Position numbers and translations under genes: made by a program. Shown in pieces: positions 36,401-52,556 of a DNA stretch of 64,000 nt (positions within the stretch are counted from its first letter, which is position 1; the number at the start of each line of letters is the position of its first letter). Where the stretch lies: contig OY761556.1 in the NCBI GenBank assembly GCA_963664705.1, forward strand, positions 4,960,001-5,024,000, in the 5' to 3' direction. This DNA is from Acidobacteriota bacterium (GTDB lineage: Bacteria > Acidobacteriota > UBA6911). The notes below the pieces were generated by a model. It searched no databases and was not told the DNA's origin. It worked only from the letters and a program-made list of their open reading frames with translations.

Positions 36401-36827
36401 GATAAACACGATTATTTCTGTTCAATCAGGCATACCGTTGGCTCTTACCCAGGCCACGAATAACAATGCTTTTGCAGGCTTCGGCGTTCAACGCCCGAAC
36501 CTGGTCGGGAATCCGGTTCTGAATGACCCGGGCACGGCAATGTGGTTTAACACGGCTGCATTTCAGGCAGCGTCGCAGTTCACGATTGGAACCGCTTCAA
36601 GAAATCCGGTTCGCGGGCCGGGAGTTCGCAATATGGATCTGTCGTTGATCAAGATGACGAGATTGCAGGAAAAACTGAATATGGAGTTTCGCGCTGAGTT
36701 CTTCAACTTCACCAACACACCGCCACTGGGCGCTCCGGCTGTTGTGCTTGGCAATGCGGGATTTGGAACAATCACTTCCGCGGGTGATCCCCGAGTAGTC
36801 CAATTCGGTATGAAGCTTACGTTCTAG
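33477..36827 (+). CDS. TonB-dependent receptor (acidobacterial type, carboxypeptidase-regulatory-like N-terminal domain)
   Basis: LPLNGRNF, SAEFGR, TKSGTNQFHG, QDDWK, FRAEFFN, terminal Phe. Confidence 0.92.
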   Translation: MSRSVVRSIMIAFALGLIALVQIEPAFAQAARGNISGEVLDPSGSVIPNVEVKLVEVRTNQEHAGKTDNAGFYTILNLVPGSYSLIIETAGFKKFTNEGIVLATGEKLRVDAKLAVGPVSETVLVAADAPLLRTEDGSLGQVIPNRTIIELPLNGRNFLGLVGLAAGVANPPNSLTPRINGGRPRVNEYLYDGISVLLPEPGQVALYPIIEAIQEFKLETNSPSAEFGRFNGGIVNLTTKSGTNQFHGSAFEFFRNEVLNARNLFAPATAVNPDKPVFRRNQFGGVLGGPIVGDRTFFFVDYQGTRQLINRVRTSTVPTLLQRRGIFTEKISGVVPTIYDPATTAPKPGGGFTRTPFKDNTLTYMDSVAVQLLNRFPLPTSSGTANNYVRSGNEPDNLDQFDLRIDQAFSTQDHLFGRYSYSMDKSNPVTPLPEGSGNLTSGFTGNNSTLGQSFAAGFMHSFSTRTANELRIGYTRRAVTQAGTELDSPPSQSISLPGLPGNAAFSNILPTFTINGIQQLGSPSSASLESRTDVTEIIDMLSFWRGRHTIKAGLDFRWERLDIIQPPQPTGVFNFSTLFTDLPGVSGTGNALASFLLGQVNTFSIDLQQKVIRPRAHIQEYFIQDDWKATRNLTVNAGLRYTLNFPSTEVDNQGAVFNLSTQQLDYLGQNSFPESARKLHKANFGPRLGLAYRIGDKTVVRSGYALVWIEQSGITTPFTNPQFPYIQTATNRTLDNVNPAFVLAKGPSVPPASLTPDAALGQGAFTVDRSLGSGYVQQWNLTIEREIANNLVFGIAYSGNKITHIGIPDTNINQLTMDQLKQGNALLVNVANPYYGQIPRQSSLGNPTISTAQLQKPYPRFTTVSFFRNNVGNSNYNSMQVKLERRAAKGLAFLVSYTRSKLLDDASSVFSNTIFTGPVANYPVADSYNRHLERDVSTGDIPNVFSTSVTYDLPLGPGYSLAKAGLAGKLVGGWKINTIISVQSGIPLALTQATNNNAFAGFGVQRPNLVGNPVLNDPGTAMWFNTAAFQAASQFTIGTASRNPVRGPGVRNMDLSLIKMTRLQEKLNMEFRAEFFNFTNTPPLGAPAVVLGNAGFGTITSAGDPRVVQFGMKLTF

Positions 36828-37002: not shown

Positions 37003-38103
37003 TTATCGCCGTCTATTGGCAAAATGCCTTGAATCGCCCCATTCGCCGTAGGCAATCGTGTCTCCCGCCATAGCTATGCGGGATTCAAGGCACATTTTAC
37101 ATGCGTCGGCTTCTTCATCCAGGCATGGCTTATTTTCATACAGCAGATAATCTCTGCGATATTTCGTTGGCGTCAGATTGGGCATTATGACATTGGCACC
37201 CACCCGTAGCGCCTTTTCCCTTCCTATCGGATCGAGGGTTTGCATGGCCGTGGTTGCCGCAATGTTTATATCCTTCATCATGACGCGAAGGATCGCAATC
37301 ATCCTCAGCGACAACTGAAATCTCTCTGTTCCGGAGAGGAGCTCATTTCGATATTGATATAGCGGCGTGCCCTGGTGCTCGATATAGGGCCCCATCCCGA
37401 CCATATCCACATCCAGATCACGAAAGAAAATCAGATCATCTGCAAGATCGGATATTTTCTGAAAAGGCAAACCGATCATCACTCCAGTGCCCACCTGGTA
37501 ACCGACTTTCTTCAGCGCCGCTAGTGCATCCAGTCGTGATTGGTATCTATGGTTATCGTCGGAGGGATGAAGCCTGCGATACAGCTCCGGATTCGAGACT
37601 TCAATCCGCAAAAGATATCTGTGGGCGCCGGCATCCAGCCAGCGCTGATACGTCTCAAGCGTCTGCTCTCCCAACGAAAGCGTAACGTGCAGCTCATTCC
37701 GAACCATTCGCTGAATGGATCGGATCAGATTCTCGATTCGGGAAATGAATCCAGGGTCCTTGCGTTCGCCTGATTGTATGACAATGGAAGCAAAGCCGTT
37801 CTCCGAGGCATACCTTGCTGCCTGCAGGACTTCCTCATCTGTCATTTCATACCGCGCATTGTCCGGATTCCCGGCGCGGATACCGCAATAAAAACAGTTC
37901 TTTGCGCAATAGCTGGAATATTCAATGAGCCCGCAAAAAAAGACTTTATTGCCTACATAGCGCGCCTTGGTCTCCGAGGCTCTCTGGTAGATTGGGAAGG
38001 CATGATCCTCTCCGGCAGAAAGCAACATAACAATATCTTCTTTGGTAAGAAGATCCTTCTCAAGAATGTCCTTTATTTCCTTAAGCATGGGGAATTGTCG
38101 CAT
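37003..38103 (-). CDS. hydE: HydE-family radical SAM protein
   Basis: GLIEYSSYCAKNCFYCG, RYLLRIE, VGTGVMIGLP, GANVIMPN, YLLYENKPC; start may be 38088. Confidence 0.85.
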   Translation of the reverse strand: MRQFPMLKEIKDILEKDLLTKEDIVMLLSAGEDHAFPIYQRASETKARYVGNKVFFCGLIEYSSYCAKNCFYCGIRAGNPDNARYEMTDEEVLQAARYASENGFASIVIQSGERKDPGFISRIENLIRSIQRMVRNELHVTLSLGEQTLETYQRWLDAGAHRYLLRIEVSNPELYRRLHPSDDNHRYQSRLDALAALKKVGYQVGTGVMIGLPFQKISDLADDLIFFRDLDVDMVGMGPYIEHQGTPLYQYRNELLSGTERFQLSLRMIAILRVMMKDINIAATTAMQTLDPIGREKALRVGANVIMPNLTPTKYRRDYLLYENKPCLDEEADACKMCLESRIAMAGDTIAYGEWGDSRHFANRRR

Positions 38104-38175: not shown

Positions 38176-38358
38176 CTATGAACGCTTGTCGAATCGAAAG
38201 CGCTCCTTCCGTTCAATCTGCACGACCTTTGAGTCGTGTACTGTAATTTCGACAGACCCATATCGAAGACCCTTTATGGCCTGCAGTATTTTCCGTTCCA
38301 CATTTCGATCGGACTCACCGGGAATCAGCGCCTCCATACGAGTTATTTCATCGGGCAT
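38176..38358 (-). CDS. YezD/DUF2292-family small protein
   Basis: LRYGSVEITVHDSKVVQIERKERFR; this family typically lies beside sulfur-assimilation genes. Confidence 0.88.
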   Translation of the reverse strand: MPDEITRMEALIPGESDRNVERKILQAIKGLRYGSVEITVHDSKVVQIERKERFRFDKRS

Positions 38359-38467: not shown

Positions 38468-39763
38468 CTATTCCTGAGATACCCGCAGTGCCTGATGGAA
38501 ATCCTCGCGAATGTCCTCAATGTCCTCGATCCCCACGGAAACGCGGATATACTCCGGGGTGACACCGGTTTCGATCTGCTCTTTGTCGGTCAACTGTGAA
38601 TGTGTGGTCGAGGCAGGGTGAATCACGAGAGTTTTGGCATCTCCCACATTGGCCAGGTGGCTTGCCAGGGTGACATTATTAATAAATTTGACACCGGCTT
38701 GCTGTCCGCCACGAATCCCAAATCCCAGAATTGCGCCTGGACCTTGAGGCAGATAATGCTGAGCCAGCGAGTGATGTTTATGGTTTTCAAGACCGGGATA
38801 ATTGACCCAAACAACCGACGGCTGCTTCTGAAGCCATTGCGCTAATGCAAGCGCGTTCTGAGCATGGCGCTCCATTCGCAGAGGCAAGGTCTCGAGTCCA
38901 AGCAGGAAGAGAAATGCGGCAAAAGGACTCATGCAGCTGCCCGTATCGCGAAGCCAGTTAGTTCGAGCGTGAATGATGTAAGCAAGATTTCCAAGAGGCT
39001 TGAGTGCTTCGGTGAAAATGGCACCGTGATAAGCCTCATTCGGCTGGGTAAATTCAGGCCATTTCCTGGGATTGTTCTCCCAGAAGAACTTGCCACTATC
39101 CACGATAGCCCCTCCAATGTGGACACCATGGCCGCCGATAAACTTTGTGGTCGAATAGACGACAATATCGATGCCGTGCTCAATGGGACGAAGCAAGGCC
39201 GGAGTAACCGTGTTGTCCAGAACCACCGGAAGGCCGTGCTTATGCGCAATATCTGAAATCTTTTTAAAATCAGGCACGTCATTTTTCGGATTACCAATGG
39301 ACTCCAGATAGACAAGCCGCGTTTGGTCATCAACAAGTTTGGAGATTTGTTCCGGATGGTCCGGGTCAAAAAAGCGAACCTCAATACCAAGCTTCTTCAA
39401 AGTCTGGGTGAAAAGTGTCCATGTGCCTCCATATAGGCTTGTGGATGAAATATAGTTCTGGCCTGAATGGGTGATCGTCAAGATCGCGGCAGTAATCGCC
39501 GCCTGCCCACTGGAAAAAGCCAATGCCCCGATGCCTCCCTCAAGCGCCGCTAGTCTTTTTTCAAGAACGTCGTTGGTCGGATTCATGAGTCGTGAATAGA
39601 TATTGCCGAACTCACGTAATGCAAATAAATTCGCCGCATGATCCGTGTCTTTGAAAACATAGCTGCTGGTTGCATATATAGGCACGGCACGGGCTGTAGT
39701 CGTGGGATCGGGCTCTTGTCCCGCATGCAACGCGAGGGTACTCAGTCGATAATTAGCGCTCAT
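38468..39763 (-). CDS. metY: O-acetylhomoserine aminocarboxypropyltransferase / cysteine synthase
   Basis: [23 protein letters not shown] (PLP Lys), [15 protein letters not shown]. Confidence 0.93.
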
Positions 39764-39827
39764 TATTCGTCCCCTTTCAGTTCGTCTGATTTGAACTTTT
39801 GATAGATAGCTGCTGCGAATTCTCAAT

Positions 39828-39866
39828 AAAAAACAAAAAGCCCGTCGAATTTGTCTCGAAGGGCTT
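39828..39866 (-). terminator. intrinsic terminator (attenuator) in the metY leader
   Basis: minus strand AAGCCCtTCGA-gacaaat-TCGAcGGGCTT-TTTGTTTTTT, between the leader ORF and the metY start. Confidence 0.85.
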
Positions 39867-39897
39867 CGTCCGGCTTTGGGATTATTGAATTCCCTGA

Positions 39898-40005
39898 TTA
39901 TGGGAAAGTGCTGCTATGCGCCCCTCCGCAATATCCTGCCGGCGTTGCCGTTTGGTGTGATAGACAACAACAGGTCAGAGTTATTTGGAAAATTGCCTTC
40001 TGCAT
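39898..40005 (-). CDS. Cys-rich leader peptide L2, [35 protein letters not shown]
   Basis: AAAGGG upstream of ATG; TGT-TGT-TGT; terminator about 31 nt after the stop. Confidence 0.75.
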
Positions 40006-40182
40006 CAGGATCAACCCTTTCAACAGCAATACTTTGCTACGATTGTCGCCAGCGCTCCGGCCGCAATGCGATTCAGTCACTAAGGTGCGTTCAAAACGGT
40101 TTATGTGATTATGTTATCGATGGAGGAGGTTTGGCCGACCGGCGAATTTTATTGGAATAGCGCTGCTTGGTCCACGCCGCTA

Positions 40183-40251
40183 TTACGCCGTCGGCGTGCT
40201 ACAACAGCAGGGAAAAATCAAAGGCAGTTCTTCTAAGCATCCCAAATTCAT
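40183..40251 (-). CDS. Cys-rich leader peptide L1, MNLGCLEELPLIFPCCCSTPTA (probably leaderless)
   Basis: TGC-TGT-TGT; ATG lies 6 nt after the -10 box of TTGACA-N17-TATTTT. Confidence 0.7.
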   Translation of the reverse strand: MNLGCLEELPLIFPCCCSTPTA

Positions 40252-40257
40252 GCATAC

Positions 40258-40291
40258 AAAATACGTACATATATCTACTTTGTCAATAGAT
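40258..40291 (-). promoter_or_regulatory. sigma70-type promoter overlapped by a putative Rrf2 operator
   Basis: TTGACA (40286-40281)-N17-TATTTT; ATCTAC-N7-ATAGAT at 40273-40291. Confidence 0.72.
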
Positions 40292-40365
40292 TTTATATAT
40301 TATATTAAAAGACCAGGAATCGCGGCTTTTGGGTAACTTCTTTTCAGAGGAAAGTCGGAGTGCGT

Positions 40366-40827
40366 CTAAATTTGATACATCAATACGCTTTTTCTTTCCT
40401 GCGCGGCCCGATCGGACCGGGCCAGCGCTTCGGCCAACGTTGTCCCGTCCAGAATATTTGAAATGGCATCACGAACATCTTTCATAACAATTCGTATCGC
40501 ACAGCTATGCTCATCCCGACATTCGGGGCATCTGGAATAGGCACTTTGGCTCACGCAGGGAACCGGGGCTAGCGGACCGTCAATTGTCCGCACAATCTGC
40601 CCTATTGTTATTTCCTCCGGTGATCTATTCAGGTAATAGCCTCCGCCCTTCCCTATTTTGCTTTCCAAGATTCCTTGATTCTTCAACTCGCGTAAGATCT
40701 GCTCCAGAAATTTTTTGGGAATGTTTTCTCTTTCGGCCAGTTCAGAAATCAGGACAAGCTTCTTGCTTGATTCACGGGCTAAAGCCAAAACAGCCAAAAG
40801 TCCATACTTCGCTTTCATTGACAACAT
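40366..40827 (-). CDS. Rrf2-family regulator (CymR/IscR-like)
   Basis: KAKYGL, IPKKFLEQIL, GKGGGY, DGPLAPVPC...CPEC...C. Confidence 0.93.
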   Translation of the reverse strand: MLSMKAKYGLLAVLALARESSKKLVLISELAERENIPKKFLEQILRELKNQGILESKIGKGGGYYLNRSPEEITIGQIVRTIDGPLAPVPCVSQSAYSRCPECRDEHSCAIRIVMKDVRDAISNILDGTTLAEALARSDRAAQERKSVLMYQI

Positions 40828-40909
40828 ATATCCCTCATTCTGGATAGGAAAAGTAGATCATTATAAAAGCACATCCCAGCCAAACCATCAATGGCCGTCA
40901 AAATTACTC

Positions 40910-40941
40910 TTGACAACTTATAATCTATTATTTATATAGAT
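40910..40941 (+). promoter_or_regulatory. promoter overlapped by a putative Rrf2 operator
   Basis: TTGACA at 40910-40915; perfect ATCTAT-N7-ATAGAT at 40923-40941 over the -10 region. Confidence 0.72.
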
Positions 40942-41059
40942 ATTGTATTTATTTTGTGATTCTTCAGATTAAACCAGAAATCTGGGCTGAGAGAATCTCC
41001 TCTTGATTGTGCCGACCGACCGGAATCCCGGAAGTCCGCAATTGACAGGGATAGATCCC

Positions 41060-41164
41060 ATGAAGTTATTGCGGCGCATTGAAATGTCACAAACTCTGCT
41101 GTACTTGAATTCCTCATCATATCTTCCTTGTTTAATACCCTGTTGTCGCTGTCCCCAGTTCTAG
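41060..41164 (+). CDS. Cys-rich leader peptide L3, MKLLRRIEMSQTLLYLNSSSYLPCLIPCCRCPQF
   Basis: AGGGA upstream of ATG; four TGT codons within 8 codons near the 3' end; 133 nt upstream of the tlpA-like gene. Confidence 0.65.
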   Translation: MKLLRRIEMSQTLLYLNSSSYLPCLIPCCRCPQF

Positions 41165-41297
41165 ATCCCAATTTTGCGCTGAGCCTCGAGCATTCAAATA
41201 GCTGGCATCCCCAATAAGTAAATTCATCAGGACCCAAATTGGAGCCTGAAAATAAAAGATTCGTTTTGTTCTCAAAACAAAGAGAGGAAGTGTCATT

Positions 41298-42518
41298 GTG
41301 AAGAAAATGTTGATGGTCCTATCGGTTTTATATTTGTTTTCCAGCCTGTCATGGGCGCAGTCTCTGACAGGTGTGTGGGATGCAACGATCAATTTCAACG
41401 GAACCATCATACCGTTCAAGCTTGAATTAGCGGGAGAAGGTTCAAAGGTCACAGGATCGTTTCTCAATGGAACCGAACGTAATACCTCGACAAGTGGCAA
41501 GTTCGAGCAGGAATCTCTGCTGCTTCGGTTCGACGACTACGGAGCGATTCTGGATGCAACGCTGAATGATACCGTCCTGGAAGGACAGTACGGTCCTTTT
41601 CAAAAAAAATTCTATTCGATTCAAGCCAGGAAGCATGCGGACTTCGCTGCGCCAAATTCCGAAGCGCCTGCGATTGGAGGCCTTTGGGAAATAGCCGGCA
41701 TCTCTGGCGCATTTGATGAAAATGCATGGCACTTAATAGTGCGCCAGTCGAATTCCTCCGTGTCTGCTGTCATTGTCCGCGCGGAGGGCGATACCGGTGA
41801 AATTGCCGGTATCTATAAAGATGGGAAGTTTACTCTTGGCCATTTCTCCGGAGCGAGGCCATCCCTTCTTGTTCTTACTCCAAAAAACGATGGGACCTTA
41901 TCTGTGCGGCTTTCTGATTTGCTTGGAAGCAGGCAATTCACAGCCTTCCGAGCGAACGAGGCGCAAGCCAGGAATTGGCCCAACTCCATCTATCCGACAC
42001 AGCCGGTACTCAATGGAAAACCCGAGTCTTTTCAGTTCCGCTTCCCGGACCTGAGCGGACGACTCATTTCCAGCTCGGATCCTCGTTTTCGTAAAAAGGT
42101 GCTCCTTGTAAATGTCTCCGGAAGCTGGAGTCCCAATTGCCATGACCAGGCACCTTTTCTTACTGATCTATACCGACGGTTTCGAAACCAGGGCTTTGAA
42201 ATCGTATCTCTGACATTTGAGGAAGCGGATCAACTTAAAGATGCATCCCGCCTGCGTGCGTTTGTCAAAAAGTTTGGAATCGAATATCCGGTGCTAATTG
42301 CAGGTGCTCCAGAAGAACGAACCGCAAAGTTACAAGCGCAGGCATCCGGCTCATCCTGGCCAACAACGCTCCTGATCGGCCGCGATGGCTTAATCCGTTC
42401 AATTCAAACCGGCTTTCCCAGCCCTGCCAGTGGCGATTTTTATGAGAAGGCAAAGGGCCAGGTCACAGCGCAGGTAGAACAGCTTCTTGCCGAAGGATCT
42501 GAATTGACCAGGAAATAG
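41298..42518 (+). CDS. exported TlpA/redoxin-family protein with SxxC active site
   Basis: signal peptide; FRFPDLSG...VNVSGSWSPNCHDQAP; WPTTLLIGRDG. Confidence 0.82.
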   Translation: MKKMLMVLSVLYLFSSLSWAQSLTGVWDATINFNGTIIPFKLELAGEGSKVTGSFLNGTERNTSTSGKFEQESLLLRFDDYGAILDATLNDTVLEGQYGPFQKKFYSIQARKHADFAAPNSEAPAIGGLWEIAGISGAFDENAWHLIVRQSNSSVSAVIVRAEGDTGEIAGIYKDGKFTLGHFSGARPSLLVLTPKNDGTLSVRLSDLLGSRQFTAFRANEAQARNWPNSIYPTQPVLNGKPESFQFRFPDLSGRLISSSDPRFRKKVLLVNVSGSWSPNCHDQAPFLTDLYRRFRNQGFEIVSLTFEEADQLKDASRLRAFVKKFGIEYPVLIAGAPEERTAKLQAQASGSSWPTTLLIGRDGLIRSIQTGFPSPASGDFYEKAKGQVTAQVEQLLAEGSELTRK

Positions 42519-42531
42519 GCTGTCAGAACGA

Positions 42532-42608
42532 GGCGCCGTACCCAAAATGGAAAGGGGAGGGTCTGCAAAACCTTAATTTTAGCGGTTCGACTCCGCTCGG
42601 CGCCTCCA
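42532..42608 (+). tRNA. tRNA-Cys(GCA)
   Basis: acceptor stem GGCGCCG/CGGCGCC, anticodon arm AGGGT-CTGCAAA-ACCTT, T arm AGCGG-TTCGACT-CCGCT, U73 discriminator, encoded CCA. Confidence 0.92.
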
Positions 42609-42627
42609 TGCTTTGAAATGAGGACAT

Positions 42628-43050
42628 ATGAAAGTAATACTATCTTTACTGTTGCTCTGTCTATTTAGCGCCTCCTGCGCTCCCAAGCGAATTCAAACCG
42701 GCAAAGTGATCGGTCCATACGCGCCAGCAATCAAAGCCGGAAAAACGCTATATATTTCCGGACAGATTGCTCTTAAACCCGGGACAACGGATTTGGTAAA
42801 CACCAACTTTGAGACAGAAGTAGTCCAGGTGCTGGAGAACCTTGTCGCCTTATTGAGGACAGCAGGGTACAAAACCTCCGACCTTGTCCAATGTACTATC
42901 TACCTTAAAGATATAAATGACTATGCAGAAGTGAATCGGATATACGGCAGCTATTTTGAAAAGGGGCGCACACCAACGCGAACCACCATCGCCGTTTCCA
43001 ATTTGCCGCGCAACGCTCGAATTGAAATTTCAGCAATCGCCTATAAATAA
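42628..43050 (+). CDS. RidA/YjgF-family protein with a lipoprotein-like signal peptide
   Basis: IGPY, LYISGQI, VLENL, PTRTT, LPRNARIEI; N-terminus MKVILSLLLLCLFSASC. Confidence 0.88.
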   Translation: MKVILSLLLLCLFSASCAPKRIQTGKVIGPYAPAIKAGKTLYISGQIALKPGTTDLVNTNFETEVVQVLENLVALLRTAGYKTSDLVQCTIYLKDINDYAEVNRIYGSYFEKGRTPTRTTIAVSNLPRNARIEISAIAYK

Positions 43051-43066
43051 AGTGGGAGAATACGTA

Positions 43067-43414
43067 ATGGCAAGCAATCCGTTACAGACTCAGGAATCGT
43101 ATCCCAGACCCATCAAAATTATTATGGTTGGGGGCCATAAGCGGAGTATGCGCAGACTGGCGGACCGCTGCCGGCAAGAAGGATGGCGAGTGGAAAATCA
43201 CTCTGGAGAAACCTATGGCCGCTGTGGTGAAGAGCTCCGATCTCAAATCGGGCGTTCCGATATTGTGGCAATAACAACGAGAGTGAATAGTCACGGTGGC
43301 ATGTTTATAGCCAAAGCCCTGGCACGCCGCCTTGGTCGAACATTTATAGTCATTCGCCGCGATAATTTTGAGGAACTCAAAGCGGCCGTGGTCGATACCG
43401 AGCGCAGATCTTAG
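43067..43414 (+). CDS. DUF2325-like protein
   Basis: IIMVGG...SDIVAITTRVNSH...AK; GGGAG upstream. Confidence 0.7.
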   Translation: MASNPLQTQESYPRPIKIIMVGGHKRSMRRLADRCRQEGWRVENHSGETYGRCGEELRSQIGRSDIVAITTRVNSHGGMFIAKALARRLGRTFIVIRRDNFEELKAAVVDTERRS

Positions 43415-43464
43415 TCTCAAACACGCGCCGGCTGAAGACCAAACCGCCGTCCGTCAGCGGTTCG

Positions 43465-44157
43465 TTATGCGGTAAGTGCGGCTTTTGTTTGGCGCTCAAT
43501 AAGCGCGCGACGAAGGCGAAGAACGCTGTAAGAGCCAAAAAGTACCACATACATTATTATATTCACGATAACCGTGCCGGAACCGGCAGCAGCAGCCGGA
43601 GCCAAAAACAGGGCCAGATGAACAAAAATGAGAAGGAAGAACAGGTAGGCCAGAGTCTGCACTCGTTTCCAGCGCGCCGGCTCCATTAACCTGCGCACAG
43701 CCCCAAACGAAGTCCCCGTAAGAACGGCAAGTATCAAAGCAGTCACAAACGAAACAGTAATTGAGAGCGCTTTATTTTTATCCAGCCTGCCTTCGCCGGC
43801 CAGAAGCAGCGGGATATAGGTATTCGCATATACAATAATGTGACCAACCGCAAGAAGGGATCCGATTATGGCAAGTTGGCGACGCAAGGGATATAGAACA
43901 GTGCGCGGCCGCGAGCCTTTGGGGAAGACACCCGCAAACATCACCAGGGCAAATAATGATAATGCAATCGCACACCGCTGGATGATAATCATCAGCCAGG
44001 AAAACCTAAAAATGGAATCGTCCACATAGTTCGCAAAGAGATATAGTCCGGTCAGGAAAATCGTCAGCACATAAAACCAAGCCGGCCGCTTCTTAAGGTG
44101 TTTGTGCAGAATAAAAACCATGGCAGTTGTTATAAGCAATGTAAGCGCAAATGTCAT
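43465..44157 (-). CDS. ferric reductase-like/MsrQ-like membrane protein
   Basis: RRQLAI, GH, TS, WKRVQTLAY, VH; about 6 TM; AAAGGAGG upstream of ATG 44157. Confidence 0.78.
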   Translation of the reverse strand: MTFALTLLITTAMVFILHKHLKKRPAWFYVLTIFLTGLYLFANYVDDSIFRFSWLMIIIQRCAIALSLFALVMFAGVFPKGSRPRTVLYPLRRQLAIIGSLLAVGHIIVYANTYIPLLLAGEGRLDKNKALSITVSFVTALILAVLTGTSFGAVRRLMEPARWKRVQTLAYLFFLLIFVHLALFLAPAAAAGSGTVIVNIIMYVVLFGSYSVLRLRRALIERQTKAALTA

Positions 44158-44168
44158 GCAACCTCCTT

Positions 44169-45488
44169 TTACGCACCGGCAGCAGCAGCGCTTGGAGCAG
44201 CCAGTCTGCTCAAGGCACCCAGCAGCCTCGTAATCTCGCCAGGCGTGTTGTAAAAATGCGTCGATACACGCAGTCCTGATACGCCACCCTGATTTGTGGA
44301 ACGGATAATGACCTGTTCTTGCTTTTGCAGCGCCCTGACAAGCTGATCCGGCGGGAGGTTTCCGATACTGAATGTAGTAATCCCGGCACCAAATTGTGGA
44401 TCCTCGGAAGTCCACAGCCGGGTCGCTGGAATCTTCTTTAATCCCCGGCGCAGTTGTGCAGATAACTGCTGCGCCCGCGCTGCAATGCGCTCCTTACCGA
44501 TCATTAGCTGAAGATCTACCGCCGCACTGATGCCACAAAGTGCGGGTATGTTCAGTTGCCCGCTTTTTTCAAATCGAGCCGCGCCTGCTTTTGTTTTTGC
44601 CATAACTCTGTCCTGACCGTTATTCGGATCGTAGTAGCCGAAAAGCGGTTCCACTCTGTCCTGCAGTTCTCTCTTAATGTAGGTAAAACCCGTTCCCGTT
44701 CCCGCAAGCAGCCATTTCTGACCGGGGCTGGCATAATGGTCGACCCCGCTCAAATGAAAATCGAGAGGCACAACTCCGGTCGATTGCGCTCCATCCACGG
44801 AAATCAGAATTCCCTTGCTGTGAGCTAGTTCAGCTAACTCTTTTATCGGCATCAATAACCCGGTTACATACGTGACATGGCTTATAACAATCAACCTGGT
44901 TTTTGATGTGATCTTCTTTTCATACGCAGCGAGGATTTCATCGATCGAATTTGGCAGCGCCGGTTCCTCCGCTCGTATGATTCGTATACCCTTCTGCTTT
45001 TCCAGCGCCTGGTATGCCTCAACAGGTCCAAAGTGTTCCCATGCACCGATAACAACCTCGTCTCCGGGCTGCCAGTGGAGTCCCTTGGCAAAGATATTCA
45101 TTCCTTCCGTCGTGCTGTGTGTTAGGGCGATTTCATCCGCATCCGCTCCCGTGAATTCGGCAATGCGTTTGCGTACGCCTGAGAGTTCCTCTTGTCTGAA
45201 GCTGTTGGTCGGGTCCGCGGCGAGTTCTTCATCATACCGTCTGTGCACTGCCAATACGGTATTGGGCGCAGGTCCCAGCGTTCCATTGTTCAGGAAAACA
45301 AGTTTGCTGTAGAGGCTGAATCCCTCGCGTATCTTCTCCCAATAAGCCTCATCGGGCCTATCAACCGATACTTTTGTCTCGTGCACCGGTTCCGGCGAGG
45401 AAATGGTTTGGGCAACCGCGCTGCCTGCAATCGCAGCGGCGGTGCCGGTAAGAAACAAGCGTCTGGAAAGCTGATATTCAGATCTCAT
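44169..45488 (-). CDS. Tat-exported class V PLP enzyme (C-S lyase / isopenicillin-N-epimerase-like)
   Basis: SRRLFL Tat motif; FLNNGTLG, STTEG, DGAQSTG, PGQKWL, RVSTHFYN. Confidence 0.85.
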   Translation of the reverse strand: MRSEYQLSRRLFLTGTAAAIAGSAVAQTISSPEPVHETKVSVDRPDEAYWEKIREGFSLYSKLVFLNNGTLGPAPNTVLAVHRRYDEELAADPTNSFRQEELSGVRKRIAEFTGADADEIALTHSTTEGMNIFAKGLHWQPGDEVVIGAWEHFGPVEAYQALEKQKGIRIIRAEEPALPNSIDEILAAYEKKITSKTRLIVISHVTYVTGLLMPIKELAELAHSKGILISVDGAQSTGVVPLDFHLSGVDHYASPGQKWLLAGTGTGFTYIKRELQDRVEPLFGYYDPNNGQDRVMAKTKAGAARFEKSGQLNIPALCGISAAVDLQLMIGKERIAARAQQLSAQLRRGLKKIPATRLWTSEDPQFGAGITTFSIGNLPPDQLVRALQKQEQVIIRSTNQGGVSGLRVSTHFYNTPGEITRLLGALSRLAAPSAAAAGA

Positions 45489-45513
45489 AATGACCTTTAG
45501 AAAGGGAAAAGGC

Positions 45514-46068
45514 TCAAGGTAAAAACACTTTTATGTACTTATCCACATCGGTATCGGCGAATGACTTGACGAGCACAGCAGATGGCTCAGTCCTGCCATT
45601 CAGTTTCCGATCAGACGACCATTGCTGAGTATCGATAACCTCGATTGCCTCTCCAGGGCATGTGGTTGCACATGCTGGCAATTTGTTTTTGGCAAGACGA
45701 TCAATACACAGATGGCATTTCTGCATTTTCCCGTTTTTGCCGTACTTCGGAATTTCATATGGGCATGCCTTCAGGCAACTCCGGCAACCGATGCATTTGG
45801 CGGCGTCCACCGTGACAATTCCGTTCTCTGCATGTTTTGTTATTGCACCTGCCGGACAGATCCCGGCGCAAGCCGGCTTCGCACAATGCAGACAGGAATG
45901 CGGCAGCGAAATATTGATGACCCGCGTCGGAGTTTCCTCCCAATGGACCAGGACTTTGCGCCACATCACACCGGCTTCCACGGAATTTGCAGCCTTGCAG
46001 GCCACTTCGCAGGCGGAGCATTGTACGCAACGTCCCAAATGAAGCCGAAAACCTAATTGTTTCGCCAT
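45514..46068 (-). CDS. 4Fe-4S dicluster subunit (DmsB/PsrB-like)
   Basis: CVQCSACEVAC, CLHCAKPAC, CIGCRSC, KCHLC, PACATTCP. Confidence 0.92.
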   Translation of the reverse strand: MAKQLGFRLHLGRCVQCSACEVACKAANSVEAGVMWRKVLVHWEETPTRVINISLPHSCLHCAKPACAGICPAGAITKHAENGIVTVDAAKCIGCRSCLKACPYEIPKYGKNGKMQKCHLCIDRLAKNKLPACATTCPGEAIEVIDTQQWSSDRKLNGRTEPSAVLVKSFADTDVDKYIKVFLP

Positions 46069-46102
46069 GTCTTATCCTTTCACCCGTCAAAACATTGCTT
46101 CT

Positions 46103-48538
46103 TCACACCTGCTGCAGTGGCTGTTTCCGCACCTGGACCAGCGTCTGGCTCGACATGGCGGTCACAATCGGATCAAATGCCCTGGCGCTTGTGTCATACA
46201 TGGAGTTTGTATTCGCACCGCCATTGAGTACTGAAAGGTTAGGCTTACCCAGCGCGTCACATCCCTCCCACCATCCGTGCAGTGCCATCACGGTATCTCT
46301 GCGGATGCCAGGATTAACATCCGCTTTCAGGCGAATGGTGCCATGCGGCGACTCGACAACCACCCAGTCCCCATGTCTTATGCCGCGAGCCTGCGCCGTT
46401 TCGGGATGTATCTGCAGGGTTGGATCGGGCGCCACTTCCCGCAGGTGTGGAAGATTGCGCAACCATGAAGCGTTATAAACTTTGGACGTATGGAAATCGG
46501 AAAAAAGCAGAGGGTACTTGTTCAGCAGTTCCGGCGTAGCGGTCAGACTTTCGGGCGGTTCGCGCCATTCCGGCAGCGGGTTGAACCCGGCTTCTTCAAA
46601 TGTCGTGTTATAGATCGCCACCTTTTGCTGCGGCAGATAGGGCGCCTTGGAAAACCTGGAACTGCGCGCAGAAAAAGCCTGCTCGTATTTTTCGTAGACC
46701 GGCTGCCGGGCATTTTGACGAACTATCCCCTCGGGCTTCCTGAGCAGCTCTTCCAGGGTAATGCCATGCCCTTTCAGTTCCTCACGCTTCCACTCTTCAA
46801 CGCTGCCATGCCAGAAATGCTTGCCGTACCCCATCCGCGCTCCCAGCTCAATCCAGAACTCGTAATCGGACTTGGATTCACCTATTGGCTCAATAACCCT
46901 ACGGCGCGGCATGATCCAATTACCGCGCCCTTCGAATGGATGATCCACCTCGTACATGGTGGAAATTGGAATGACGATATCCGCATAATTCATGTCTGCG
47001 GTGCGAGCCACATCGAGGACTACATAGAAATCCACCTTCTTTAGCGCTTCCAAAACGGTCCTCGTGCCACGAGTGCTCGTTACAGGCTGCGTGCCGGGCG
47101 CGATAATTGTGCGAATCGGATAAGGTTTGCCTGTGAGCACGCTTTCGAAAATCCGGTAATATGCGGAAGTGGGACTATTGCTTGTCTGAAAGGGGAGCGG
47201 AAACTCAGGGGCAACAAGTCTGTTGACCTGTTCCTGAGTATACACGAGGCTGTCCCGAGACTCACCCGGGCCCGGTCTCCCACTCTGCTTGGACTTTGGA
47301 GCCGGAGCGCCGGGACCGCCGAGTCCTGCAAAGCGGCGAGGCCCATCGGGAGATCCGGAATTGCCGGACCTCCCGATTCCGGGACTTCCAAGCCCTTCCA
47401 TTCCTCCGGGACCAGCACTTAGGAGATTTCCACCTCGACGATCCAGATTTCCGGTTATTGCAATCAGAATCGCGACAGATCGCACGGCATCATTGCAGCT
47501 CGGAGAGTGTTCAAAACCGTTGCCGGTCTCAATGCAGGCGTGCTTGGTTGTGGCAAAGAGCCGGGCAACTTCGCGCGTCTGCGCTGCCGGCACGCCGGAA
47601 ATCCTCTCCGCCCACTCCGGTGTATATTTCTGAACGTGCGGAACAAGTCGGTCAAACCCATAGGTCCACTTTCCGACGAACTCTCTGTCGTAAAGTTTTT
47701 CGGTGATCACAACATTCAGCAGAGCCAGAGCGAACGCCGCATCGGTTCCCGGGCGAATAGGAACCCAGATATCCGCAAGAGCCGCATCCGGCTCCATAGT
47801 TGGTTTGACTGCAATGATCTTTACACCGCGCGCCTTCGCTGCCAACAATTCACGAACTCCCCCCTTGGCGCTCCCTGCGTAGATTGGCTGCTTCGCCCAG
47901 ATGATCAACAACCTGGTATTCTGAATATCAGCGGTTGGCGAACTCCCAAGCGTATACTGAAAAGAAAAGCCCTTTTGCATGGCGCAAATTCCGCTGTGCG
48001 CATAATTTGGGCTGCCGTGCGCGGCGAGAAATCGTCGAAAATAGGAGCTATACGATCGCGCAGCCGGGGAGAGTATCGCAAGCGACTCCGGCCCAAATTG
48101 CTCCTTCTGTTCCTTCAGTTTTGATGCAATCGTATCGAGCGCTTCATTCCAGGTGATACGCTTGAACTTGCCTTCGCCCCGTTCTCCAACCCTCTTCAGC
48201 GGATAACGCAATCGCTGGGGTGAGTAGACCCACTGCGGTGCAGCATGCGCCTTCCCGCAATTTTTGCCCCGATTCAGCGGAGCATCCTTCAGCGGTTCAA
48301 TCCCAACAAAACGTCCATTGCGCACAACAGCGTTGATGCCGCATCCCTGGCTGGGGCCGCACATCGCACACATGGTCGGGACAAGCTTTTCCGCTGCTGC
48401 GGAAACCAAAGGCGTTGTCTCGGCCGCATGAAGCAGTGCCAACGGTTCAACTGTGCTCCAGAGGGCCGATTGAACACATATCGCGCCTGCCGCTCTCAAA
48501 ACCTCGCGCCGGGTTATTTCACTATCCTTAGATTTCAT
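46103..48538 (-). CDS. Tat-exported molybdopterin oxidoreductase catalytic subunit
   Basis: TRREVL Tat motif; CAMCGPSQGC...C; SGICAM (probable Cys Mo ligand); PIRPGTDAA; C-terminal MGD domain. Confidence 0.9.
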   Translation of the reverse strand: MKSKDSEITRREVLRAAGAICVQSALWSTVEPLALLHAAETTPLVSAAAEKLVPTMCAMCGPSQGCGINAVVRNGRFVGIEPLKDAPLNRGKNCGKAHAAPQWVYSPQRLRYPLKRVGERGEGKFKRITWNEALDTIASKLKEQKEQFGPESLAILSPAARSYSSYFRRFLAAHGSPNYAHSGICAMQKGFSFQYTLGSSPTADIQNTRLLIIWAKQPIYAGSAKGGVRELLAAKARGVKIIAVKPTMEPDAALADIWVPIRPGTDAAFALALLNVVITEKLYDREFVGKWTYGFDRLVPHVQKYTPEWAERISGVPAAQTREVARLFATTKHACIETGNGFEHSPSCNDAVRSVAILIAITGNLDRRGGNLLSAGPGGMEGLGSPGIGRSGNSGSPDGPRRFAGLGGPGAPAPKSKQSGRPGPGESRDSLVYTQEQVNRLVAPEFPLPFQTSNSPTSAYYRIFESVLTGKPYPIRTIIAPGTQPVTSTRGTRTVLEALKKVDFYVVLDVARTADMNYADIVIPISTMYEVDHPFEGRGNWIMPRRRVIEPIGESKSDYEFWIELGARMGYGKHFWHGSVEEWKREELKGHGITLEELLRKPEGIVRQNARQPVYEKYEQAFSARSSRFSKAPYLPQQKVAIYNTTFEEAGFNPLPEWREPPESLTATPELLNKYPLLFSDFHTSKVYNASWLRNLPHLREVAPDPTLQIHPETAQARGIRHGDWVVVESPHGTIRLKADVNPGIRRDTVMALHGWWEGCDALGKPNLSVLNGGANTNSMYDTSARAFDPIVTAMSSQTLVQVRKQPLQQV

Positions 48539-48622
48539 TTTCGAATTTCCTCTGTAGCGACGCACGGATTTTTCGGATCATCTCCAATGGAGATGATCCG
48601 GGGACATTTCAGAATTCGTCTC

Positions 48623-51600
48623 TTAGAAACTGAGCCGCGCTCCCAACTGAATCTGGCGGGGATTATTGGTTGTCCCACTGATCTTGCCGAAGTTAGAGCT
48701 GGCGCGATCAACATTCGGTTGTGAGAAAATCGGTGTGTTCGTGAAGTTGAAGAACTCGGCGCGGAATTGAGCCTTCACTCGCTCATGGAGGGTCACCGTC
48801 TTGAAGAGGGAGACATCCAGATTAACCTTGCCATGCGTGCGCAGGTCGGCATAAGTACGCGTTCCGTTGCCGAAGGCGTATGCAGCCACGGTGGTGAACG
48901 CATTGGGATTGATCCATCCGTCATACCGTTGAGACGGGCTGCCAGAGGTAGTCAGTGGAACTCCCGCAACAAGATTGGCCCGCTGATAACCGGTGGTATT
49001 GTTTCGGTTGGTCTGTATAACCTCCAATGGATATCCAGACTGCGTCGAGCCAACGATGTTCAGCGACCATCCGCCGGCCAGCAGATCGAGTGCATTGGAG
49101 CTGCTCGCCCAGCGCTTGCCGCGTCCAAAAGGTAAATCGTAGGAGATTGAAGTGCTGATCCGATGCGGCTGATCCTGGGTGGAACGGCTCCATTCATCCG
49201 CAGGATTATAGGCATTCTGCGGTCCGTTCGTTGTTGAATTGACTTGCCGGTTGCCTTGCACCCAGGCAAGTCCGACGATGTTGTCGTAGTTTTGAGACAG
49301 AGTGTAGGAGGCAAGCAATGCCAGTCCGCTCTTGAATCGTTTCTGTCCCCGGAGATAAAAGGCAAGGTAACGTGAACTGGCCGTATCTGAAGCAGACAGA
49401 TTCACGCGAAGATACTGGGGGTACGGCAACAACAACTGATAGTATGGAATATTTGCCTGTCCCAGCGACGAGCTGCGCGGGACAATGCCATAGAATGGAT
49501 TAGACACCTGGCGATCCAAAACCGCTGAGCCTAGAGAGAAGTAGGAAGGGTCAAGCTGGTTGATGTTGCGATTATCCTGTGTCAGATGCAGCGAGTGCGA
49601 ACCGATGAGACCGGCGGCAAATACCATCCCGCCAAAAGCTTCCCGCTGGAAATCGAGTGAATACTGCTGCACATAACCGCCGGACCGCGTTTTAGGATCC
49701 AGGATATTGATATTTTGTCCCCATGCAGCTGTCTGGGATTTGTCCGCCGGTTGAATTAAGCCGTTCGGATATGGATTAGCCAGGGTTGTGACTCCATCGG
49801 GCAAGCCTTTGATGGCGCCTTCAGCGCTTACAGACGTAACCGCGGTGGTGCCTGCGGGCGCCATCGCTGCTATCTCGAGAGACCATGGGGCCCAGAAAAT
49901 GCCGTAGCCTCCGCGAAGGGCTGTCTTGTCGTTAAAGGCATACGCGAAACCGAAGCGAGGCCCCGGTTTGAGTGTATGGGGATTGGAAGTACGTGTTGGA
50001 TTGTTGTTCTCTCCCGCAAACTGCAAGACACCGCGGACCTGGCGTCCGAGCGCGTTGCTGACCGAAGCACTGATCGGGTTTATCGCATTACTGTCCAAAC
50101 CTACATATATATTGTTATGGTCTTCCGACACACCCGTTTCATGCTCGAAACGCAACCCTAAATTCAGGGTCAGTTTTGGGGTAATGCGAAAATCATCCTG
50201 CACAAAGAACCCATAATAATTGACGGAATCGATAACACGCTTGGATGCAGTATACGGGCCGCTATCGGGAAGTCCGAGCAGGAGGCTTGCCAGCCCGCTG
50301 CCGGTATTCGCGTCATTCGTATTGTATGGGTCGGCGTTGGTAAACAGCGTGGAGAAACCCAGGTTCAGAGCTCCGCCGCCAGGAATGCCGCTGATGCCCA
50401 GAACACGGAAGTCGAATCCCCCTTTCAGGCTATGCCTCCCAAAGAGCTTTGATATCGAGGCATTGAAATTGCGCGTGTAATAAACCGCTTCCGAGGTGTT
50501 GCCGCCGCCGAAACCGGTGTAACCGGCAACCGTAATGCCGGGAAATGCGGGCCGGGCCAAACTGCTTGCCAGCGCCTGCGGAAATCCAAGTTGAGTGATG
50601 TCATACCCTTGATTTTTCGCCGGGTATGACAAATCCCAGAGACGGTTGTATCCCCAACGGATGGCGATGACCGTCGATGGGTTGGGCGTGAGCTGCGCAT
50701 TCGCGGAGGTGGCATCGACCTTCCGTTCCGTGCTGGAACCGCGCGTGGCGATGCGGGTAATCGGATTGTCTGCAGTGCTCCAGGGATATGTGTGGTTTTC
50801 CTGCGTCCCTTGATAAACATACGACGCGGCGGCTTTAAGCCAGGGGGTGAACTGGTGATCGAGTTTTCCGGTATATTGCGCACCATGGTGCGGAGTGCCC
50901 GCGAGTCCAACGTAATTGGGAGTAGAGGAATTGTTGTACCCCTTCCGGGTTGCATTTTCATCCGGATAAATGTTGGCTAGCCTTTGTCCGAGCGCACTGA
51001 TGCGATTGGTGGGAATAGTATTGTTGGGAAATGGGTCACGCATAACCTTCCCGGTCACAGGATCGAGGCGCGTGGTCAGCGGATCGTAAATGATATGTAG
51101 CGTGCCATTCGCATTAAACGTCTGCGAAAAATTACCAGCCCGCTCCAACGCAGTCGGTACAAGATCGGCAACGCTTCCGGAATTTCCTTTTGTATAGCGC
51201 TCCGTAGAGAAGAAGAAAAAGGTCCGATTATGGCCATCGTAAATCTTTGGGATAAGAACCGGGCCGCCAAACGATCCGGCATAAGTGCGCTCATCCGTGT
51301 TCGGCTTTGCCGTTCCATTGCGGTTATTTTCAAACCGGTTGGCCGCCCAGCCGGTTTCGCGATCGTAAAAGACAAGACTTCCGTGCACCCTGTTTTCGCC
51401 GGAACGCAACGAGACATTATATGTACCGCCGCCCGTGCGCCCCACTTCAGCATCATAGGTATTGGCCTGCACTTTCAGATCCTGCGTCGTTTCTGGCGAT
51501 GGAAGAATCAAAACGCGATTGGTGAGATCGGCAAACGAAATGCCGTCGACCAGGAAGTTGTTTCGACGCACGGGACCGCCTGCGATCGATACCTGCGAGG

Positions 51601-52132
51601 TGCTATAGTGGTCATGCATTCGGATGGATTGTTCCCCGCCGGTCCACACAACAGTTGCGGCGAGTCTCGCGGTTAAATAGATATTGCGTCCCAGGTTGGG
51701 CAGATCCACGATTTTTTGATTGTCCAACAGCTGACCGATTGAAGCGTCCGCAATCTGAATCTGCTGCGTTTCCGAGCTCACCGTAACTACTTCGCTGATC
51801 TCGCCAATGTCCAACACCAGATCCAGTGTTACGTTCGCCTGGGTAGAAACAATCACGCCGCGGCGTTCCAGGTGTTTGAAACCCGAGGCCTCAACACTAA
51901 CCGTATAGGTAGCGGGGATAACCGCCGAAAAAACATACTCTCCCTGTTCATTGGTGGCTGTGGTACGGCGTACCTGGGTATTCTCATTAACCAGAGTTAT
52001 CTTGGCTCCTTCCGCTACAGCTCCTGCCGGATCCACCACTCTGCCTCTCAACGATCCTTGAAATGACTGAGACCAGGCAAATGTTGATAATAGGAAAAAT
52101 GAAATTATGATCCTTACAAAGATGCTTCTCAT
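48623..52132 (-). CDS. TonB-dependent receptor (acidobacterial type)
   Basis: LPNLGRN, YDAEVGR, QDDFR, FRAEFFN, terminal Phe; AAAGGGGA upstream of ATG 52132. Confidence 0.92.
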   Translation of the reverse strand: MRSIFVRIIISFFLLSTFAWSQSFQGSLRGRVVDPAGAVAEGAKITLVNENTQVRRTTATNEQGEYVFSAVIPATYTVSVEASGFKHLERRGVIVSTQANVTLDLVLDIGEISEVVTVSSETQQIQIADASIGQLLDNQKIVDLPNLGRNIYLTARLAATVVWTGGEQSIRMHDHYSTSQVSIAGGPVRRNNFLVDGISFADLTNRVLILPSPETTQDLKVQANTYDAEVGRTGGGTYNVSLRSGENRVHGSLVFYDRETGWAANRFENNRNGTAKPNTDERTYAGSFGGPVLIPKIYDGHNRTFFFFSTERYTKGNSGSVADLVPTALERAGNFSQTFNANGTLHIIYDPLTTRLDPVTGKVMRDPFPNNTIPTNRISALGQRLANIYPDENATRKGYNNSSTPNYVGLAGTPHHGAQYTGKLDHQFTPWLKAAASYVYQGTQENHTYPWSTADNPITRIATRGSSTERKVDATSANAQLTPNPSTVIAIRWGYNRLWDLSYPAKNQGYDITQLGFPQALASSLARPAFPGITVAGYTGFGGGNTSEAVYYTRNFNASISKLFGRHSLKGGFDFRVLGISGIPGGGALNLGFSTLFTNADPYNTNDANTGSGLASLLLGLPDSGPYTASKRVIDSVNYYGFFVQDDFRITPKLTLNLGLRFEHETGVSEDHNNIYVGLDSNAINPISASVSNALGRQVRGVLQFAGENNNPTRTSNPHTLKPGPRFGFAYAFNDKTALRGGYGIFWAPWSLEIAAMAPAGTTAVTSVSAEGAIKGLPDGVTTLANPYPNGLIQPADKSQTAAWGQNINILDPKTRSGGYVQQYSLDFQREAFGGMVFAAGLIGSHSLHLTQDNRNINQLDPSYFSLGSAVLDRQVSNPFYGIVPRSSSLGQANIPYYQLLLPYPQYLRVNLSASDTASSRYLAFYLRGQKRFKSGLALLASYTLSQNYDNIVGLAWVQGNRQVNSTTNGPQNAYNPADEWSRSTQDQPHRISTSISYDLPFGRGKRWASSSNALDLLAGGWSLNIVGSTQSGYPLEVIQTNRNNTTGYQRANLVAGVPLTTSGSPSQRYDGWINPNAFTTVAAYAFGNGTRTYADLRTHGKVNLDVSLFKTVTLHERVKAQFRAEFFNFTNTPIFSQPNVDRASSNFGKISGTTNNPRQIQLGARLSF

Positions 52133-52323
52133 GCTTAATCCCCTTTGCGCGAAATGCTCGTGTCCGCTTTTCAGGACAGGAGTGATCGATAACCCGGCCC
52201 GCAATCATTCATGGAGAGACAATCTTGAATGAAGGACCGGCACCAATCACAAACTGCCGTCGGCGCGAATTTTGATGTTTTGTTCCAAACGCATGCGAAA
52301 AACGAATGTGGAATCGCTTAGGA

Positions 52324-52407
52324 TCAACAACAACAGCGCTGGGATTTCAAATCTTTGGGGAACTGAAAGAAGAATTGGTGAGTCTTGTAAATTCTGAGGG
52401 TTCTCAT
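52324..52407 (-). CDS. Cys-rich leader peptide L4, MRTLRIYKTHQFFFQFPKDLKSQRCCC
   Basis: ends TGT-TGT-TGT-TGA; lies between the predicted promoter and the TBDR start, same strand. Confidence 0.72.
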   Translation of the reverse strand: MRTLRIYKTHQFFFQFPKDLKSQRCCC

Positions 52408-52518
52408 GTCAATCGTCCGTGATTGCTGACTTCCGGAGTTCCGGTCAGCCCGCGGATTTATTCACAGCAAGCTCCTGGGACCAGATATCTGGTTAATCCC
52501 CAACAGAACTAATATAAT

Positions 52519-52556
52519 TTCTATGGATATAATATACATTTATCGGAGGCTTTCAA
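52519..52556 (-). promoter_or_regulatory. probable promoter with a degenerate Rrf2 operator
   Basis: TTGAAA-N16-TATTAT on the minus strand; TTCTAT-N7-ATATAC at 52519-52537 (9 of 12 matches). Confidence 0.45.

Follow-up and report, generated by a model that had tools for sequence, protein, structure and literature searches.

Candidate cysteine-sensing leader peptides upstream of sulfur operons in an Acidobacteriota genome

The stretch of DNA analyzed here (the window) comprises 64,000 nucleotides (nt) of the genome of an Acidobacteriota bacterium (GTDB UBA6911; assembly GCA_963664705.1, contig OY761556.1, positions 4,960,001-5,024,000). At window positions 39,828-52,556 it holds four short open reading frames (ORFs) with runs of cysteine codons, named L1 to L4. 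L1 and L2 precede the metY operon, L3 precedes an operon of tlpA and a tRNA-Cys gene, and L4 precedes an operon encoding a TonB-dependent receptor (TBDR) and a molybdoenzyme. The sequence comparisons make it probable that L1-L4 are cysteine-sensing leader peptides that hold these sulfur operons on when Cys-tRNA is in short supply, with Rrf2 control in addition at metY and tlpA. For the Cys-tRNA sensing step taken alone, L1 and L3 are highly likely sensors and L2 is a likely one, whereas L4 is favored less firmly. The initial annotation had proposed Cys leader peptides over a sulfur-scavenging island, and the core of that reading held for L1 and L3.

Cysteine-run reading frames and their homologs

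Translation of the window recovered the four ORFs exactly and in frame at the coordinates first annotated, each co-oriented with its downstream operon as had been claimed. The reported predominance of TGT was also borne out. TGT accounts for 11 of the 12 run codons of the four leaders, compared with 28% of the Cys codons in called genes (P = 8e-6) and 38% of intergenic TGY (P = 2e-4). The gene set of 5,280 genes was obtained with a simple gene caller of our own on the 6.9 Mb genome. Because all three tRNA-Cys genes carry GCA, TGT needs wobble reading. As a null, short ORFs with CCC were counted, giving 19/13,043 in sense and 5/8,270 in antisense orientation within upstream regions, and an ATG ORF of 8-40 amino acids (aa) with CCC, CCxC or CxCC was present in 12 of 2,492 sense upstream regions. 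A loose test for leaderless Cys ORFs within 520 nt of genes was passed at 7 of the 5,280 genes, which gives the background for such leaders; CCC was seen only at cysK and cysG, and L1 itself lies just outside the 520-nt range.

By their predicted architecture the four leaders are not of one single design. The L1 ATG lies 6 nt past the -10 box of the predicted metY promoter and its mRNA is therefore predicted to be leaderless, whereas L2-L4 start 120-250 nt inside the predicted transcripts. The promoters themselves, which had been claimed for each operon, are consensus matches only, and a scan of 39700-41400 gave 2 against 3.2 expected. Conservation of the Cys run in frame, with the other residues drifting, had been proposed beforehand as a test. 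It was found for L1 and L3, whereas L2 has one analogue only and the outcome for L4 was mixed.

Homologs of L1 were gathered from cysK loci, with a pattern anchored at the promoter, and with a covariance model (R1), whose 24 matches comprised 6 training rows, 1 copy already known, 2 new members and 15 judged to be noise. The resulting family has nine copies in six genomes of two genera. All nine copies have an in-frame start codon 29-34 nt after the TTGAC hexamer, where transcription should begin, and in one a further ATG, out of frame, precedes it by 5 nt. The distance between start codon and run is 48, 51, 54, 57 or 63 nt, each divisible by three; the non-Cys residues and the position of the stop vary between copies, and the third positions of the run codons vary between T and C. 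The genes behind the family are cysK (five copies), cysG-cysH-cysD-cysN, metY, a ferredoxin gene and DUF2325, and the homolog of the window's DUF2325 gene in the genome G013 is preceded by an L1-type leader. In the genome studied here, L1-type leaders are also present at cysK and at the cysG-cysH-cysD-cysN operon; this distribution, the leaderless layout of L1 and the differing RNA outputs were all absent from the initial annotation. A strict L1 pattern gave 7 matches in 4 of 137 genomes of the class and 0 in the reversed control. At 735000-750000 of the genome contig, a complete sulfate-assimilation operon lies behind an L1-type leader; the divergent sulfite reductase there has no Cys leader, whereas its counterpart in the genome G009 has one.

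In every copy of the L1 family a hairpin opens 5 nt after the last Cys codon, with z-scores of -1.65 to -3.5 in the eight copies folded. The hairpin folds while a ribosome occupies the first Cys codons and disappears as the ribosome advances. A positive C/G skew was found behind all eight hairpins tested, with a mean of +0.30 among copies that are kin, against a background of -0.005 +/- 0.21. Two full-length rho genes are present in the genome (643143-644378 and 3893937-3895178). A species-wide pattern scan for the L1 motif returned GC-rich chance matches, and none of the 120 listed loci resembled a true leader. Loose leaderless patterns were rejected, their matches being mostly chance (selA starts, out-of-frame runs). 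On the opposite strand upstream of the cysK leader of the genome G002 lies a sequence resembling a SAM-I (S-adenosylmethionine) riboswitch.

Homologs of the TlpA protein behind L3 were found in 27 of 401 genomes of the phylum. Outside the genus, a short Cys ORF precedes tlpA at 20 of 28 loci, at 18 of these behind an exact TTGAC, and 54 of the 76 Cys codons in these leaders are TGT. The leader of the G013 ortholog ends in CCCC-stop. Five leaders of the family f65 have terminators with alternative upstream pairing, and in all five the 5' arm of the terminator pairs upstream more when the ribosome is stalled than when it is at the stop codon. In the family f48, the C/G skew is positive in 15 of 15 leaders. 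In the leader-bearing families, further leaders of this type precede cysD, tRNA-Cys and the genes of a sulfatase and a sulfatase maturase, and one f48 leader heads a radical-SAM/SPASM gene. A metagenome scan with TlpA gave no match.

Several further observations concern this locus. In the genome G350, a Cys leader and a terminator lie directly 5' of a tRNA-Cys gene, which together with the tRNA-Cys gene of the L3 operon suggests feedback on the tRNA-Cys supply. At one metagenome locus, an rrf2 gene and a short ORF with seven Cys diverge, the ORF being followed by the gene of a secreted protein, which is also the layout of rrf2 and L3. Back-to-back leaderless Cys ORFs occur in the genomes G434 and G490, one at tlpA and the divergent one at small secreted proteins, for which no NCBIfam match was found. 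The window TlpA reads SxxC (42126-42140) and its G013 ortholog lacks any Cys (WNPNS), whereas the 28 farther homologs read WCPNC; the redox site thus seems to be decaying in the genus. Selenocysteine in TlpA was rejected, given the WCPNC of the homologs.

An intrinsic terminator, overlooked by a simple terminator scan, lies 65 nt upstream of the metY start and thus between L2 and metY, as classical attenuators require. The candidate antiterminator overlaps the terminator base only. The analogue of L2 in G009 is a nine-Cys leaderless ORF before sulfite reductase with near-identical terminator arms, in which the upstream pairing of the terminator 5' arm is 0.77-0.89 with a stalled ribosome versus 0.43 with the ribosome at the stop. 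L4 is the least supported of the four leaders; among farther TBDR homologs, a leaderless CCC ORF was found at two of eight.

A DNA search with 39750-41350 in 41 genomes gave two short matches only. A search of 29 genomes of the genus at E<=1e-30 gave no match to the Rrf2 protein, and an alignment of the whole island was therefore impossible. The contigs of a second sample were identical to the island wherever they overlapped it, with no variants.

Sulfur-poor products, structured leaders and Rrf2 operators

Sulfur sparing is described as a mark of proteins made under sulfur starvation in the part of PMC8557817 available. Ranked by Cys+Met content among 2,770 proteins, the TBDR lies at percentile 0.1, TlpA at 0.5 and MetY at 1.0. 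The TBDR is the poorest in Cys+Met of 16 paralogs, MetY is poorer than its paralog, and TlpA homologs average 0.8% Cys+Met with a leader versus 1.7% without. The sulfur-poor composition of the controlled proteins provides independent support for the core reading of Cys leader peptides at these sulfur operons. HydE is sulfur-rich, and its gene may for this reason not belong to the metY operon. A neighboring TBDR (33477-36827) is sulfur-poor too (0 Cys, percentile 1.8) and has no TGY run upstream.

L3 and L4 are preceded by paralogous structured 5' untranslated regions (UTRs), which have two small hairpins in common with two G013 leaders (contig C61, 57442-57589 and 53454-53594); changes in the arms preserve pairing. 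An Rfam scan of the L3/L4 UTR gave no match to any model, and the ideas of a T-box, SAM or molybdenum cofactor (Moco) riboswitch, raised by resemblances, found no Rfam support. A covariance model of the UTR (R2) returned only its four training rows from 137 genomes.

The initial annotation had placed one palindrome at all three promoters and an Rrf2 layer over the whole island. Both were supported at tlpA and metY, whose sites rank first and second in the genome, and fell away at the TBDR promoter, whose best site ranks 1,098. The operator matrix was built from 26 sites, none from this genome, and scanned against the 6.9 Mb. When dyads were counted without bias in 77 regions upstream of Rrf2 homologs, CTAT-N7-ATAG shared the top rank. 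A relaxed CTAY-N7-RTAG-type site, composed with prior knowledge of the window's palindrome, occurred in 32 of 80 such regions versus 8.1 in 200 shuffles. The site at the tlpA promoter lies 94 nt upstream of the divergent rrf2 gene. Because the predicted operators overlap the promoters, we infer that the Rrf2 protein would repress metY and tlpA. The operator shape may resemble the CymR box. A third strong and exact palindrome (14.8 bits with the Rrf2 matrix) lies at genome positions 4927608-4927628, flanked by a LysR-type gene and a divergently oriented binding-protein gene, and could be a site of the LysR-type regulator.

The downstream gene identities given in the initial annotation were confirmed by profile searches, which recognized MetY, DUF2292/YezD, HydE, Rrf2, TlpA-like, tRNA-Cys(GCA), Rid and DUF2325 and, in the TBDR operon, a TBDR-type barrel, a molybdopterin oxidoreductase, an Fe-S subunit and a class-V pyridoxal phosphate (PLP) enzyme. 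All features are collected in Table 1.

Table 1. Features of the sulfur island in window coordinates
Feature	Position	Strand	Basis or remark
hydE-like radical SAM gene	37003..38088	-	profile search; sulfur-rich
yezD-like small protein (DUF2292)	38176..38358	-	profile search
metY, O-acetylhomoserine sulfhydrylase, 1 Cys and 3 internal Met	38468..39763	-	TIGR01326 above cut-off
Intrinsic terminator hairpin and U tract	39828..39866	-	-14.6 kcal/mol
Candidate antiterminator, arms 39948-39938 and 39874-39863	39863..39948	-	folding
L2, 35-aa ORF with CCC (TGT x3)	39898..40005	-	translation; analogue at G009 sulfite reductase
C-rich, G-poor tract, candidate Rho loading site	40074..40133	-	C/G skew +0.44
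Conserved hairpin, starts 5 nt past last Cys codon of L1	40134..40195	-	folding, z -2.0
L1, 22-aa ORF, MNLGCLEELPLIFPCCCSTPTA, CCC = TGC TGT TGT	40183..40251	-	translation; family of 9 copies
Predicted sigma-70 promoter (TTGACA-17-TATTTT)	40258..40286	-	consensus match
Predicted Rrf2 operator over -35 box of metY promoter	40272..40292	.	17.9 bits, genome rank 2
Rrf2-family regulator	40366..40827	-	TIGR00738 above cut-off
Predicted Rrf2 operator over tlpA promoter	40922..40942	.	18.5 bits, genome rank 1
Structured 5' UTR ahead of L3	40954..41060	+	common to L4 and two G013 leaders
L3, 34-aa ORF ending C-L-I-P-C-C-R-C-P-Q-F, ...LPCLIPCCRCPQF	41060..41164	+	translation; homologous leaders
TlpA-like protein, SxxC replacing CxxC	41298..42518	+	profile search
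tRNA-Cys(GCA), third, most divergent genome copy	42532..42608	+	tRNA search
Rid-family hydrolase	42628..43050	+	profile search
DUF2325 protein, true start probably later	42956..43414	+	profile search
Ferric-reductase-like membrane protein	43465..44157	-	profile search
Class-V PLP enzyme, desulfurase/lyase-like	44169..45488	-	profile search
Fe-S subunit	45514..46068	-	profile search
Molybdopterin oxidoreductase, best model PhsA but below cut-off	46103..48538	-	profile search
TonB-dependent-receptor-type barrel, 1,169 aa, 0 Cys, 4 internal Met	48623..52132	-	profile search
L4, 27-aa ORF ending ...QRCCC-stop	52324..52407	-	translation
Structured 5' UTR ahead of L4	52404..52512	-	paralogous to that of L3
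Best Rrf2-like site near TBDR promoter	52518..52538	.	6.1 bits, rank 1,098; noise level
Predicted TBDR-operon promoter	52529..52556	-	consensus match

Proposed mechanism and alternative explanations

In the proposed mechanism, the four ORFs would be translated, L1 from a leaderless mRNA. When charged Cys-tRNA is scarce, the ribosome would stall on the Cys codons and the downstream sulfur-scavenging operon would stay on; the reading of TGT by wobble with the GCA tRNA-Cys may sharpen the pause. At L2, a stalled ribosome would leave the antiterminator free, whereas a ribosome at the stop codon would melt it, so that the terminator forms. At L1, stalling of the ribosome at the beginning of the run would allow the hairpin to form, leaving less single-stranded RNA open to Rho, whereas a ribosome passing the run would melt the hairpin and expose the C-rich stretch to Rho, as in mgtL and corL. 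L3 and L4 may likewise act through Rho-dependent termination, and for L1, L3 and L4 together the case for a Rho-dependent output is about evenly balanced. L1 and L2 would act in series on metY, and only the metY and tlpA promoters would in addition be controlled by the predicted Rrf2 repressor.

A number of findings weigh against this mechanism. The Shine-Dalgarno sequences of L2, L3 and L4 are weak or absent. Leaders are patchy among the genus loci examined (0.3-1.5 kb upstream), being within reach at 4 of 30 cysK loci and, again among 30 loci each, at one for sulfite reductase and one for metY, the latter being the locus described here. At tlpA they are concentrated in two families of kin (15/15 and 5/6 loci) and missing from four other families (0/7), and 2 of the 20 have spaced Cys only, with no full CCC. 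The covariation of the L1 hairpin is thin, with 2 of 9 pairs and 19 of 500 shuffles as high, and the hairpin forms with the ribosome at Cys1-2 and not at Cys3. The antiterminator of L2 is weak, the upstream pairing of the terminator 5' arm being 0.36-0.38 with a stalled ribosome versus 0.31 at the stop, and the terminator prevails in all full-length folds. The C/G skews behind L3 (+0.23) and L4 (+0.20) are within the upper background range. The ATG of L4 overlaps a second -35-like hexamer, and this TTGACA-17-TACAAG match would start transcription inside L4. The closest L4 ortholog, in G013 (72% identical), has CC alone, which overlaps the start codon. The Rrf2-like site at the TBDR promoter is indistinguishable from noise.

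Among the alternatives, it is unlikely that the output is translational, with the ribosome-binding site downstream of L1, L3 and L4 masked by the leader RNA in the absence of a stalled ribosome, as in mycobacterial Ms5788A. Such a mechanism has been published for polycysteine leaderless ORFs (bioRxiv 10.1101/834739, available part), several copies of L1 have a CCUCC-like stretch behind the hairpin, and the site downstream of L4 opens slightly, from 0.47 to 0.63, with a ribosome present. However, 28 modeled leaders showed no consistent switch in Shine-Dalgarno accessibility between stalled and stop positions, as far as equilibrium folding goes, L1 precedes L2 and not a protein gene, and inspection by eye showed no covariation between the C-rich stretch and the downstream site. 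A distinctly unlikely alternative holds that L1 and L2 alone are functional, that L3 and L4 are incidental or have decayed, and that the Rrf2 operator and the common structured UTR control their operons. In favor of it, L3 and L4 are not leaderless, their initiation signals are weak and no terminator follows them; the G013 TBDR leader keeps the UTR with its Cys run nearly gone, and six of eight farther TBDR homologs have no CCC leader. Against decay, the tlpA leader of G013 retains the UTR together with a longer run, Cys leaders recur at the farther tlpA homologs, and TlpA and the TBDR are extremely sulfur-poor. Moreover, the TBDR promoter has no credible operator and another sulfur sensor is therefore needed there.

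It is very improbable that the peptide itself acts, through metal binding or nascent thiol sensing, like Bordetella CruR, or as a radical-SAM substrate. The positions of L4 before a TBDR, L3 before a thioredoxin-fold gene and L1 and L2 before an operon with a radical-SAM gene would suit this idea, as would the f48 leader at a radical-SAM/SPASM gene, and CruR is a Cys-motif upstream ORF (uORF) before a TonB-dependent transporter (PMC12360218, available part). Yet only the Cys run is kept in the protein, the later residues tracking the RNA hairpin and the stop shifting. In L4 and the G013 leader, Cys are the final residues, the same leaders stand before cysK, cysD and tRNA-Cys, and the TGT bias is a signal at the level of codons. 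That the TGT runs are chance or structural RNA not read as codons is barely credible. TGY runs do arise by chance, loose-pattern matches are mostly out of frame or in coding DNA, and the L1 run is almost invariant in nucleotides; on the other hand, the frame is held across five spacings with third positions varying T/C, the in-frame run is the sole common element of unrelated RNA architectures, and the background is only 7/5,280.

With cysteine-sensing leader peptides as the preferred reading, a wider proposal is tentative and somewhat short of an even chance. L1-L4 would then belong to a phylum-wide cysteine ribulon of Acidobacteriota with a TGT-biased run and three outputs (an intrinsic terminator, a hairpin-gated Rho site of a new kind, and long leaders that are structured), with two sensors in series at metY, a self-sensed spare tRNA-Cys, and organosulfur scavenging by TlpA and the TBDR/molybdoenzyme. 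The spare tRNA-Cys under its own sensor would form a feedback loop, the TlpA family is uncharacterized, and the TBDR system would be a sulfur-free one.

Relation to known systems

Experimental proof of cysteine attenuation in the literature found is limited to mycobacteria and a translational route, and the leaders described here would add another phylum and suggest outputs at the level of transcription. The hairpin family of L1 is absent from Rfam. As annotation, the leaders tie an unstudied but widespread TlpA-like family, DUF2325, the TBDR and the molybdoenzyme to sulfur starvation, a link that is backed by the sulfur-poor sequences. Full-text literature searches, with most subscription papers outside their reach, gave no report of cysteine leaders in Acidobacteria, and the part of PMC2965389 available lists predicted Acidobacteria attenuators with almost no assigned functions.

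The Rrf2 protein can be compared with CymR of Bacillota, with which it has in common the Rrf2 fold and a position adjoining sulfur genes, CymR being the best named equivalog model. It differs in scoring 89.8 bits against the NCBIfam CymR model, below the cut-off of 195, and in its conserved C91/C100/C103/C109 cluster.

For the leaders themselves, the nearest precedent is the mycobacterial 'Cys ribulon' of polycysteine leaderless short ORFs, among them Ms5788A (bioRxiv 10.1101/834739, available part). In both systems the 5' end of sulfur operons bears short ORFs with Cys codons in a row, several per genome, and L1 and most of the homologous leaders are predicted to be leaderless. The differences are the phylum, the available text making no mention of Acidobacteria; the hidden Shine-Dalgarno site of Ms5788A, a switch that folding did not reproduce here; and L2-L4, which are not leaderless. 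The likeness is one of layout. The actinobacterial cys/cbs leader peptides predicted by Seliverstov et al. in 2005 (PMC1262725, available part) have Cys runs near the stop, no intrinsic terminator and pyrimidine tracts as proposed Rho sites, and are best matched by L3 and L4; no conserved hairpin was found for them, whereas every copy of the L1 family carries a hairpin whose distance to the run is constant at 5 nt.

The model for L1 resembles the uORF-controlled Rho attenuators mgtL, corL, tnaC and cruR (reviewed in PMC12360218), in which the advance of the ribosome along the uORF changes the fold of the leader and uncovers or masks a Rho site. Those systems respond to Mg2+, tryptophan or copper, and no cysteine case was found in the available part of that review. 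L2 follows trpL and hisL, as outlined in the accessible part of 10.1101/834739, in its control codons, in an ORF that extends across the antiterminator arm, and in the hairpin and U tract that follow. It differs in using Cys codons, in lying behind a second leader, and in an antiterminator that reaches the terminator base only. Cysteine leaders are thus a known kind in Actinobacteria, of which L1-L4 are a variant in another phylum.

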